A DNA stretch of 64,000 bases, from positions 62,001-126,000 of the forward strand of contig JBEWZL010000237.1 of NCBI GenBank assembly GCA_045837725.1. Reading direction: 5' to 3'. The stretch's first letter is position 1, and the number at the start of each line of letters is the position of its first letter. The notes beneath the pieces were generated by a model, which ran no database searches, had not been told where the DNA came from, and was given only the letters and a program-made list of their open reading frames with translations. The translations under genes were made by a program, and so were the position numbers. Below, piece by piece: positions 29,206-64,000 of the stretch. Source of the stretch: Vermamoeba vermiformis (taxonomy: Eukaryota).

Positions 29206-30686
29206 ATGACACGAGCTTCATTAGTCGCTGTGCTCGTAGTAGCATGTCTGGCCCTTAGTAGTCTCGGCGTTCACGGATGGGGCTCCACTGGCCACAAAAC
29301 AGTTGGTAATTTCCTTAATTATCGAGGAAATGGAATTTATTAAATGACACGATACCTAGTGTCGAATTTATTGACGATTTACAAGTCACTCGAAATTCAG
29401 CTTTACAATTCCAAAGTCCCTTTATTGATTGTATTTATTAGCCGCTATTGCCAATGGCATGTTGAGCCCGAAGGCTAAGACCGCGGTAACAACTTGGCTG
29501 GGAGCTGGACAAGACATTGTAAAAGTGTCCATCCAAGCCGATGTCTACAAGCACGGTGCTGGCAAATGGACAAGCTCGATGCATTTTGCTAACGTGCCTA
29601 GTAAGTTAACAGATTGCTGATGTGATTGATGCTCGTCAACAAATTTGTTTCAAGATGGGATCTTATTTTATGACACGTTAGACCCGCCATCTTCCTCATG
29701 ATCATGATACTATCATAACAATTAATGAGAGGCAAAATACTGACTTCAATAATTTAGGAAGCGCATCTGAGTTTACAATGCAAAATGGTTGTTTGGATAA
29801 CTGCATCGTGAAAGCTATTCAAAACTACACGTCCATTTTGAAAGCAAGAAAGGTACGATTACTTTACTGCCGAAAAGAACGCGGTTCTCGCCTGCTGGTA
29901 TCCCCTAATTGTTTTCGAGCGAATGCTGGCTCGGGTTGTTTTACCAACACGAGCAACTTCCAACCAAATTAGTGCACCTCCCAGCCGGTGATGTTAGACA
30001 TACTCCTTGATCATTACCTAACTTACCTGGTGCATAGATTCCATTTACCTTTTTGTTTATTTTTTTTTTTGATCCGATCCTGGTTTTAATCGTGTTGCTA
30101 GCCTTTCTTCTTTCCCTCGCCTAACTGGGAGATTAATGAACCCTCGCCTATCGCATTCTTGGTACACCTCGTTGGCGACGTGCATCAGCCTCTGCATATT
30201 TCGTGAGTACACACTAGATTTGCTCTCGTGCCAACTCCAGCAACTACTAACGAACTAAAATAGATTCGCTGACGATAAAGGCGGCAACAATGTGGTTGTG
30301 ACATGGTTTGGCCAACAATCAAATCTGCACGCTCTATGGGATGACGGGATACTAAGCAAATTGAGTACGTGGTGACTGGCCTACAGGTGTCTGCCCTAGC
30401 CATACTAATTCCGTATTTAGGCAAGGATTACAATTCACTCGCGAAGGAGCTGACTGATGAGATAAACAAGAACCCAGCAATCATGACCAAATATTCCAAA
30501 TCTACCGATCCCGTTCAGTGGGCGAGAGAGTCGTTCCTCATCACGAAGGATATATACAAAAAATTGCCTAGCAATTTGTCGTCGAAAAATCAAGCATACG
30601 TGGACAGCAACAAGCAAACTGTGAGAGAACAGCTGATGGCTGGAGGTATCAGACTTGCCAAGCTTCTTAACCAGATTTTTGGTTGA
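29206..30686 (+). CDS. Secreted S1/P1 nuclease (copy 1)
   Basis: Signal peptide followed by WGSTGH; ADVYK, HF, FLVHLVGDVHQPLH, DKGGN, NLHALWD, WARES, GGIRLA. Confidence 0.92.
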
Positions 30687-48068: not shown

Positions 48069-48418
48069 AGGTGTGCGTGGAGGTGTGGTCTTAGCTTGTT
48101 AAAAGTGATGTTAAATGCTGCTCGGTGCAACGGTCACTGGTTGATTTCAGCGCTCAACCAGGGCTCGGCACGTGATTGCTGCAACGGATACTTGCCTTAT
48201 TTGGTACCAATAAAAACTAAGTCGTGTAAGTTCATTTCGTTTCAAAAGCACGTAATTCGATATACTTATATTCACATTACTGCCGCACCTTGCAGTGCTT
48301 ACCTTGATCCAACCAAACGGAACTGCACTAAAAACAAAACAATACTCGCTCCTCTTGAAGACAACTATTTACAATTAAAATACTATGTACATGGTTACTA
48401 AGACGCCGTTCCTTCGCT

Positions 48419-48518
48419 GCACATTAAATCAACCCAGATCTTGGTCCGCAGCACTCGATCGAGTCAATTCGATTCTCAAAGCACTGGTTCATAACAGATC
48501 TGCGCCCATTTAATGCGC
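48419..48518 (-). promoter_or_regulatory. Eukaryotic type II SECIS element in the 3' UTR of the small selenoprotein gene
   Basis: Minus-strand fold: helix I GCATTAAAT/ATTTAATGT plus CAGATCT/AGATCTG; core AUGAA (48492-48488) opposite GGAC (48447-48444); helix II CAGTGCTT(T)GA/TCGAGTGCTG with G-U pairs; unpaired AA at 48474-48473; apical mini-stem TCGA/TCGA. Confidence 0.85.
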
Positions 48519-48549
48519 TACATAGTCTCGCGTCTTATGATATTGAATA

Positions 48550-48951
48550 CTACTTCTGAAGATTGCGCACTAGCTCGGCAAATGAGCTCTGAATTGTGTC
48601 CTCACTGCCACTCTTGTGCGTATTTGTCTTAGTGTCGTGAGTGCTGCTGCCAGTGCTGCGTGTGTTCTCGTGTCCAGAACAGCGCTCTGAGTGCGGTATG
48701 CCGTGCAGAGCCTGTTCGATGTGCAGTCCTCAGCCTGTGCGGGATAATTAGTGGTAATTCAATTTCGAAAATAATAATTATTTTTAAATTCTGTATCGTT
48801 GATTATCGTAGATTTTATTTAAATAATATTATATTTATGTTAAGTAAATTATTAGACGTGCAATGAAATTAGATCCGGAGTTTGTCTTCAAAAGCAACTT
48901 ACCGACCCAAGTCCACTTTTGACACTGCTTACACCTCACTTTTTGGCACAT
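48550..48951 (-). CDS. Small (77 aa) Cys-rich putative selenoprotein; exon 1 48951-48903, exon 2 48734-48550; in-frame TGA at 48732-48730
   Basis: Canonical GTAAGT...CTAAT...CAG intron (48902-48735); spliced translation MCQKVRCKQCQKWTWVG(U)GLHIEQALHGIPHSERCSGHENTRSTGSSTHDTKTNTHKSGSEDTIQSSFAELVRNLQK*; SECIS downstream. Confidence 0.85.
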
Positions 48952-49253
48952 ATTTGTACGACACTAATACTACACTTGTGTCGTGCACTGCTGCTACGAG
49001 TTGATTGAACCGGCATTGGGCCATTTTCAGTGAAATTCACGGCCCTGGTCCAGCGCAATGATATCATGCGACACAGTGCAGCATTTCAGTCTGTTGTCAG
49101 TGCAAGTGATGGCGCGTCGTTGATTGTATATTGAATTGATATTACACGCGAGCAATTAATCGACTGTTTGGGGCTGCAAAACTCCATCTCGGTCGAAAAA
49201 TGTTTTCGAAATGTTTGTCATCGATAAAAGTGGCCAAAAAAATGGTTGATAAT

Positions 49254-61491: not shown

Positions 61492-62002
61492 ATGTCAAGC
61501 ACTGAAGTAAAACCTTACACGCGAAAGCGCAAAATAGATCAAGTCGCTGCAGATGTAGACGAGATTGCTACCCCACTGCTGTCTGCGAGCACAAATGATG
61601 ACAATAAATCGAGCGATGTTACAACTACAGCACTGTCAATAAGAGAAAAACTGAAGAGTAATGCGATTTATTAAATAATTTATTGAATTATTTTTAATTA
61701 ATTTCTTTCTCGTCAAAGAGCCCAAAACTACCCACGAAGGGTCCTCTGAGGGAAATAAGAATAAATCCGACAATAGAGATCCTGAAATTATGAAAAAAGT
61801 GAAGGCACCTGTTATTGTGTACAATCGCACATCGCGTGGTCTGAGCGAAGAGCAGATCCGCAAGTCTGTTGAAGAGCACAAACGCAAGCTCATTGGCTGG
61901 AGGGTATGTCAAGTATGTATATATGTATAATATAGCACCACTGACCTAGTACAGTACCACGTGGCGAGCAAACAAGCAGAGAGTCAACGCAAGCCCAAAT
62001 GA
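61492..62002 (+). CDS. Small basic hypothetical protein (3 exons)
   Basis: Exons join in frame through GT-AG introns; NLS-like RKRK; no family recognised. Confidence 0.55.
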
Positions 62003-62919: not shown

Positions 62920-64000
62920 TTACACTATGCGCACACGACGCGCGAAGGTCAAGTAGCCAGTGTGGCCGCGCATTTCAGGGAAGGGACGCGTCGTAATGAG
63001 GGATGTGGATGCAGCGCTCGGCGCATCATTAGTACTCGCAGTGCCAGTGTCTGAACTCTGCTCGCGCTTGCGTTTGTGACCGCGCTTGTTGTCTGCAGCA
63101 CTCGTCTTGACCTCGTAGTCGCGGAACAAACACTCCACGGTGCACACGTCCTCGAAGCGCGCCGTCATCAGTGCCGCACTCGTCTTCTGCACCTGTTCAA
63201 TGCAGGGACTGAAGGACACTACGCGCCCATTCACCTTCAGACTCCGCTGCACACTCTCGATCACCAGCCACGGGGAGGGCAGATCTAAGAACGCGGCGTC
63301 AGCGAGCACTGCAGTCACGTGCTCAGTGCTGCCGTTCACTGCACGGTGTTGCGTGTCCAGGGCTGTGCGCAGTGCAGTGCCATCAGTGACAGCCGTGTTG
63401 CCCTCGCTCGCTGTCTCCGCGCTGTTCAGCTGCACTGTGAAGCCACGTGCCACCACATCGCCGTGCACCACGTGGATGTGTCCCGTGTAGTCCAGTCCAC
63501 CGCGCGCCAGTCGCTTGAGTTGTTCCGTGATGTTGTGCGCTCGTTCGCGGTGGTACTCGAAGGTGACCACGTGACCAGTGGGCGCGACAGCACGTGACAG
63601 CGAGACAGTGAGCGAGCCCGAGCCCGTGCCACTCTCCAGCACCCAGTGACCGGGCCGCAGATCCAAGCCTGCCGTGACAATGGTGGCAATGTCGTGCGCG
63701 TAGAGAATTTCAGTGCGATGAGGACAGGCTTGCGTCCAGAGAGCGGCTGTTAGCGGCAACAACACGATCCAGCCTGACTTGCGATCTGCGCTGTAGAGCT
63801 GAAAATAGAGGATTAATTTACTATTGGCAGAGATCATGTTATTGATACTATTGTAGTAATTATAAACAATTTTGGTAATTTTAATAGAATTAAATTCGAA
63901 ATGCGTTGTCGTGAGTTACCTTCGATCCATATTCCAAACCAATCAACGAATCATGTTTAAAATTTCCGAATTTAGAATTCAAATATTGACCGGGAGTAAT
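62920..64000 (-). CDS. TRMT61A: tRNA m1A58 methyltransferase catalytic subunit TRM61, 5' part beyond the window
   Basis: PHRTEILY, VLESGTGSGSL, TFEYH..RA, AFLDLPSPW, SFSPCIEQV, GHTGYLTFAR. Confidence 0.93.

Follow-up and report, generated by a model that had tools for sequence, protein, structure and literature searches.

A two-exon gene for a predicted selenoprotein of a small Cys/His-rich family in Vermamoeba vermiformis

The 64,000-nucleotide (nt) stretch analysed here, hereafter the window, comprises positions 62,001 to 126,000 of the forward strand of contig JBEWZL010000237.1 (Vermamoeba vermiformis, assembly GCA_045837725.1). Between a thymidine kinase (TK) gene and a RUS1/UVB_sens gene, it carries on the minus strand, at 48550-48951, a small gene whose frame contains a TGA codon, and which a preliminary description had proposed, from the letters alone, to encode a novel selenoprotein. 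All the features claimed for this locus are present in the sequence, namely the ATG, exon 1, a GT..AG intron, the TGA and the TAG. The start codon lies at 48951, and the coding part of exon 1 (48903-48951) is 49 nt long, corresponding to 16 codons and the first base of the Gly17 codon; in the spliced translation it provides the family-motif residues Cys2, Cys7, Cys10, Lys12, Thr14 and Trp15. The 168-nt intron (48735-48902) interrupts the Gly17 codon in phase 1; it opens with GTAAGT from 48902, bears CTAAT about 15 nt before the acceptor, and ends in CAG at 48735. The coding part of exon 2 (48550-48734) starts with the last two bases of Gly17 (GC), immediately followed by the TGA (48730-48732), the proposed selenocysteine (Sec) codon for residue 18, which is aligned with the invariant Cys18 of a G-C-G-x-H motif. 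After the TGA, 59 codons remain open up to the TAG stop at 48552-48550. When the exons were joined by their coordinates with a script, a 234-nt frame of 77 codons with a single internal TGA was obtained. Use of a second CAG inside exon 2 as the acceptor, 23 nt further on, was rejected, as it shifts the frame.

Four sequencing runs (X5, X8, X21 and X23) were aligned to the locus. X5, which has another organism label and comes from another study than the best DNA match, provided a 247-nt contig of depth 18 (record 4) that aligns to the minus strand with an exact 168-nt gap, flanked by GT..AG ends and joining 48734 to 48903. Every coordinate of the two-exon model put forward in the preliminary description thus matches, and its junction is seen in a spliced, RNA-derived contig that skips the intron. 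This contig covers 48902-48931 on the exon 1 side and spans 48539-48733 on the other, where it differs from the window only at 48605 and 48650, indicating that the TGA is retained. Its end consists of letters that appear to be sequencing adapter. Records 1-3 of X5 span 48394-48568, so that the 3' untranslated region (48394-48549) is transcribed at least to 48394 and the hairpin described below lies inside the transcript. A second X5 variant (48474-48568) displays six differences, all of them within 48504-48538, the 35-nt linker between the stop and the hairpin; the final 30 nt of the coding part with its stop codon show none, nor do the 30 nt of the 5' half of the hairpin.

X21 and X23, which are raw RNA reads under the species label of the best DNA match, each provided 11 aligned reads. 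Since these reads are only 90-99% alike to the window, they come from a relative. They span 48684-48745, and the only differences listed, at 48709 and 48718, are both at synonymous third positions; given the listing rules, these reads support, though they do not prove, retention of the TGA in the relative. In the five X21 reads that reach the intron, the intron has diverged, with a 2-nt difference before the CAG. In four X21 reads (window 48691-48737), the loose part before 48705 resembles this same stretch read from the other strand, apparently a cDNA artefact caused by strand switching or folding back. No sequence of X8, a water metagenome, aligned to the locus.

TGA was described as a normal stop in neighbouring genes, and this was upheld. 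It is found at 30684, 50882 and 56257, as stated, and the RUS1 frame is closed by TGA after a complete UVB_sens_C match. Of the 42 stop-to-stop frames in the window that have 170 codons or more, 18 are terminated by TGA, and the 1902-codon midasin frame does not contain any TGA. A reassignment of the TGA codon was rejected: TGA is an ordinary stop in this genome.

To define the family to which the product belongs, a degenerate DNA pattern of the motif was scanned over one genome per prokaryote species. Small genes of the Cys form were found at no fewer than 116 bacterial loci, nearly all in Actinomycetota, each carrying an open reading frame of 37-71 residues that opens with M-C-x4-C-x2-C-x-K-x-T-W-x-G-C-G-x-H and reaches R-C. 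Residues M1, C2, C7, C10, K12, T14, W15, G17, C18, G19, H21 and C35 are invariant in all 27 diverse bacterial members that were aligned, confirming the earlier placement of the TGA on the Cys of GCG, and the spliced product has every one of these residues but C18, which is TGA. A hidden Markov model (HMM) of 117 bacterial members of the family was then compared with all 2915 six-frame pieces of the window and with the spliced product. The spliced product reached 60.5 bits (E 1.6e-17), the piece after the TGA alone 26.4 bits (E 6.8e-7) and the exon 1 piece alone 21.3 bits (E 2.7e-5), while the next best of the 2915 pieces had an E-value of only 0.14. The pieces on both sides of the TGA are thus each significant by themselves, with no further frame defect in the 77 codons, and the family match of the gene, as judged from these comparisons, is far beyond chance. 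Homologues with Cys at position 18 and similarity continuing past the TGA, which the preliminary description had named as support for its proposal, are therefore present.

A profile search recovered 3180 family proteins among 3242 candidates, and the named proteins among the 120 best matches listed were all annotated as "hypothetical protein". No match was obtained with the exon 2 product in Pfam or in a word-indexed homologue search, and no Pfam or NCBIfam family scored above its cut-off with four bacterial members. The family had been described as one of small proteins from bacteria, fungi and plants: the bacterial members and a plant member (carrot) were indeed found, but no fungal member was present among the 20 hits looked up. 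At three actinobacterial loci (L008, L031 and L085), two copies of the gene, one of a short and one of a long form, are located a few kb apart.

Metagenome contigs were scanned with the same DNA motif, this time with TGA at the Cys18 codon, the pattern itself requiring the motif to be in frame. Forty such loci were found (L117-L156), with a G+C content of 0.42-0.76; they encode 24 different products that are 38 residues long or more. The frame stays open through G-x-H-(I/V)-(D/E)-x-A-L ... R-C in 35 of them, one being cut by the contig end, and stops 8-11 codons past the TGA in the other five; for three of these five, a sister contig suggests that an intron is present there. With a looser descriptor of the Sec insertion sequence (SECIS), the RNA hairpin that recruits the selenocysteine machinery, 19 of the 40 loci have a match on the gene strand 60-1500 nt downstream, and just five matches occur elsewhere on both strands of these contigs (160,628 bp). 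The SECIS-like elements are canonical-looking, with ATGA or GTGA cores and A-rich or C-rich apical parts, and show compensatory helix 2 changes among related contigs. At one locus, a neighbouring protein shares a cluster (identity of 90% or more) with proteins of Skeletonema, and this locus at least is, by sequence, that of a diatom-like eukaryote. The window product scored 65.9 bits against an HMM of the Sec-form loci. At the level of sequence, these 40 loci provide strong support for reading the TGA as selenocysteine.

Several of these Sec-form loci and their relatives deserve separate mention. Past a conserved G-W-(K/R)-T-G-K-C stretch, L129, L132, L134, L137, L152, L154 and L155 bear a second module, C-x-x-C followed by (M/F)-x-A-S and ending near A-H-(K/Y), which is found in many eukaryote-type forms. 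L139, the locus with a G+C content of 0.76, has a tail closer to the bacterial than to the algal C-terminus, and no SECIS-like match was found there with the descriptor. A phmmer search with one diatom-like form returned 314 cluster representatives at E<=0.001. Among the 36 that were fetched, 29 have Cys at the site, four have Trp and three start just past it. One of the four Trp forms is almost identical to the product of L142, where this codon is TGA, and all four would result from a gene caller reading TGA as Trp. The gene calls P0330, P0337 and P0341, together with P0332, P0338, P0369 and P0454, begin after the TGA or give Trp, and these seven public gene calls probably mis-annotate selenoprotein genes. 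Two metagenome-derived predictions, P0348 (244 residues) and P0373 (351 residues), have the small domain at their N-terminus and are candidate fusions or merged calls. Named eukaryotic Cys forms come from carrot, Norrisiella (a chlorarachniophyte), Tisochrysis (a haptophyte) and Epipyxis (a chrysophyte).

A SECIS had been placed 30-130 nt downstream of the stop, and a stable SECIS-like hairpin does lie there, at 48518-48419 on the minus strand, 32-131 nt past the stop. In this extended form, which includes an extra lower stem of 11 bp and 3 bp, the minimum free energy (MFE) is -42.2 kcal/mol (z -4.21), and only one of 200 shuffled sequences folds as well. Within it, the MFE fold, a strict descriptor and the published consensus delimit a type II SECIS-like hairpin at 48502-48435, which lies 48-115 nt downstream of the stop and at a distance of 238 nt from the UGA. 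Its helix 1 of 7 bp pairs 48502-48496 with 48441-48435. Above it, the 5' core A-UGA-A (48492-48488) is unpaired in an internal loop and faces the 3' core G-GA-C (48447-48444) in the same loop. Helix 2 has 11 layers, two of them mismatches (48487-48477 with 48458-48448), and is followed by an unpaired AGAA (48476-48473) and by helix 3, which has 4 bp and a 6-nt loop (48472-48469 with 48462-48459). An alternative 3' core, UGAU at 48431-48428, fits the letters of the consensus and was rejected, as helix 2 would then face 27 nt against 13 nt.

In both strands of the window (128 kb), the 48502-48435 hairpin is the sole match of the strict descriptor. By comparison, 25 dinucleotide shuffles (3.2 Mb) contained 2, 6 and 15 matches when helix 1 was required to have at least 6, 5 and 4 bp, respectively. 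A second match of the looser descriptor, at 48223-48275 on the minus strand, has 11 layers with two mismatches and a helix 1 of 5 bp; it lies between the 3' end of the gene and the start of TK, beyond the stretch transcribed in X5.

Taken together, we consider it likely, with good confidence, that 48550-48951 on the minus strand is a genuine gene, which is expressed, has two exons and encodes a predicted selenoprotein of 77 residues. Its mRNA is spliced at 48903|48734, with the UGA kept as codon 18; the 48502-48435 hairpin, as a putative type II SECIS, would recruit the selenocysteine insertion machinery, and residue 18 would then be read as selenocysteine, translation running on to the TAG. 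The protein is, by its sequence, very probably a Sec member of the small Cys/His-rich family M-C-x4-C-x2-C-x-K-x-T-W-x-G-[C/U]-G-x-H ... R-C.

A number of observations weigh against this conclusion. As regards the hairpin, the SECIS descriptors were composed after the candidate had been seen, the looser one has nine matches in the 128 kb and is weak evidence by itself, and the 74-nt core alone folds only modestly better than chance (z -1.96; 7 of 200 shuffled sequences fold as well). The SECIS consensus reads UGAN/KGAW, of which UGA/GA alone is invariable (PMC2647825), and the window hairpin has G-GA-C for K-GA-W, with a C at the W position. Its apical AA begins at the third unpaired base, after A-G, instead of the first. 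No SECIS was reported by Rfam at E<=10 in either of two intervals, 48100-49100 and 48385-48550, nor was the hairpin reported by R1, a covariance model that we built from seven GC-rich SECIS-like elements of the Sec-form loci. These two negatives are uninformative, since both tools also miss control elements. The Rfam run (family SECIS_1), which multiplies E-values over 4227 families and has little power here, likewise found no SECIS among 20 Sec-form loci, 15 of them descriptor-positive. R1 recovers its own relatives, together with L148 at 14.2 bits and L141 at 12.6 bits, and misses three AT-rich descriptor-positive groups (L117/L133, L143 and L129/L152). MAFFT alignments of more diverse SECIS-like elements were structurally inconsistent. 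Beyond the hairpin, ARAGORN found no tRNA in the 64-kb window, and the G-H-E-N tail of the window product, a feature of the bacterial long forms, is absent from all 40 Sec-form loci. On the transcript side, X5 is called RNA only by guess, no spliced read was present among the 11 aligned reads of X21 or of X23, five X21 reads continue into the intron, and the changes after the TGA in relatives amount overall to four synonymous and four non-synonymous ones.

Some of these observations would suit a Cys-family gene with a recent TGY-to-TGA nonsense change or an assembly error at this codon, that is, a young pseudogene from which only a 17-residue peptide is made. A single base change would do, the hairpin is unrecognised by Rfam and R1, and the non-synonymous changes in relatives fall in the C-terminal tail. 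However, an independent spliced contig also carries the TGA, no change at this codon is listed in the reads of the relative (90-95% alike), both changes in the conserved core are synonymous, and the 59 open codons match the family after the TGA. A SECIS-like hairpin also stands at the right place, and 40 further loci, encoding 24 distinct products, likewise have TGA at this codon. A pseudogene is, on balance, improbable. Even less probable, in our view, is a selenium-independent read-through of the UGA, in which a near-cognate tRNA would insert Trp, Cys or Arg, or a role of the UGA as the intended terminator in a regulatory transcript. The hairpin could in that case be a general read-through or stability element, but its core has the UGA/GA geometry that is particular to SECIS elements, and canonical-looking SECIS elements are found with homologues that also have TGA here. 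Moreover, the site is that of an invariant Cys, the classic place of selenocysteine, to which Trp or Arg would be a poor fit. The exon model itself would be wrong if the true transcript used a different acceptor, for instance the AG located 23 nt downstream, and thereby skipped the TGA. The second CAG and the lack of spliced reads in X21 and X23 speak for such a transcript, which we nevertheless find hardly credible: the sole junction observed, in the contig of depth 18, is the predicted one, the shifted frame loses all family similarity, and the predicted frame resembles the family before as well as after the junction.

If the TGA is indeed read as selenocysteine, the question arises of what the protein does. 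Because selenocysteine takes the place of the invariant Cys of G-C-G-x-H, we infer that residue 18 is reactive, with His21 nearby, and that the other cysteines hold the fold, probably through a metal. An AlphaFold2 model of one bacterial member had a pLDDT of 79 and gave no PDB fold match with an E-value below 6, and a profile search of PDB sequences returned nothing below E 0.068. Gene neighbourhoods were counted within 2.5 kb of the small gene at the 116 bacterial loci. A rhodanese cluster is present at 44 of them, including proteins of at least 400 residues in 32 cases, and three representatives of these long rhodanese proteins are Lactamase_B and Rhodanese fusions, as in type III persulfide dioxygenases. 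A CsoR-type repressor is encoded at 22 loci, TauE at 12 and a CMD protein at six, and any of rhodanese, CsoR-type repressor or TauE at 51. At L059, 4 nt separate the end of the small gene from the fusion gene. The same four-gene set forms the sulfane-sulfur oxidation circuit of Streptomyces coelicolor, as described in PMC7533328. These persulfide dioxygenase-rhodanese, CsoR-type and TauE neighbours in Actinomycetota point to a persulfide-handling role: the protein would most likely act as a thiol or selenol acceptor, carrier or reductant in the handling of sulfane sulfur (persulfides). This role, drawn from bacterial gene neighbourhoods, may not carry over to the eukaryotic proteins.

No main text describing the G-U-G-x-H family motif as that of a selenoprotein was found in the literature, and PMC6627142 contained nothing relevant to the motif family. 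Lobanov et al. (2007; PMC2375036) report three "hypothetical protein" selenoproteins (1-3) in Ostreococcus, one O. tauri hypothetical protein having the only ATGA-type SECIS of that genome, and Jiang et al. (2020; PMC7539508) report a "Hypo" selenoprotein family in algae. The motif family may thus already have been catalogued, without a name, among the algal hypothetical selenoproteins. Sec forms of the family turn out to be common in marine algae. Only tentatively do we suggest the broader proposal, possible but doubtful as a whole, of an uncatalogued and widespread eukaryotic selenoprotein family, present in diatom-like, prasinophyte-like and other plankton as well as in this protist, whose Sec/Cys residue would be reactive in persulfide metabolism together with persulfide dioxygenase and rhodanese. 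If this were true, the family would represent a selenium-dependent step in sulfide detoxification.

The selenoprotein reading of the gene has consequences of its own. If it is correct, the organism uses selenocysteine, and the Sec/Cys pair would single out residue 18 as the reactive centre in an uncharacterised family that has neither a Pfam model nor a solved structure, and for which the bacterial operon context offers a concrete and testable hypothesis, persulfide handling. Gene callers miss or mangle such genes, and a family model with selenocysteine at residue 18 would repair many algal and protist annotations.

Elsewhere, the window encodes midasin, DnaJ and GCD14. With the GCD14 exon at 62920-63912 (minus strand), hits were obtained at 97% and at 74-79% identity, the next best being about 41% identical, in plants, green algae, Arcella and fishes. 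Since the best named relatives are only about 41% identical, the stretch appears to come from a poorly sampled protist lineage. It was also found, in small shares, in water and aquifer metagenome runs.

How does the locus compare with known systems? According to PMC2647825 and PMC3753652, consensus SECIS elements have an unpaired A before the UGA, a run of A's and a helix 2 of 11-16 bp, and type II elements an additional helix 3. The window hairpin resembles a type II SECIS in having an unpaired A before the UGA, the UGA/GA quartet, a helix 2 of 11 layers, an A-rich loop 2 and a helix 3; its two helix 2 mismatches, by contrast, are unlike the consensus. The 3' cores in the Sec-form loci read UGA(A/U/G), whereas that of the window reads GGAC. 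These Sec-form homologues, from marine and aquatic eukaryote metagenome contigs, have in common with the window gene the N-terminal motif and the position of the TGA in it. They differ from it in that their motif region is intronless, while the window gene has an intron, and in that R-C is usually followed by G-W-(K/R)-T-G-K-C, often with a second Cys-rich module, instead of the G-H-E-N tail. The small Cys-form proteins of Actinomycetota have the same invariant residues as the window product, with Cys18 in place of the TGA, and the bacterial long forms have in common with it an R-C-x-G-H-E-N tail and a hydrophobic C-terminus. These members, however, are bacterial, have Cys at residue 18 and are frequently encoded in operons alongside persulfide dioxygenase-rhodanese, CsoR-like repressor and TauE genes, whereas the window gene lies between TK and RUS1. 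Finally, the Ostreococcus hypothetical proteins 1-3 and Hypo are small marine-algal selenoproteins that can be likened to the motif family by their description; the ATGA-type SECIS reported there for O. tauri has its counterpart in all the prasinophyte-like Sec-form loci found here, which likewise have ATGA-type cores.

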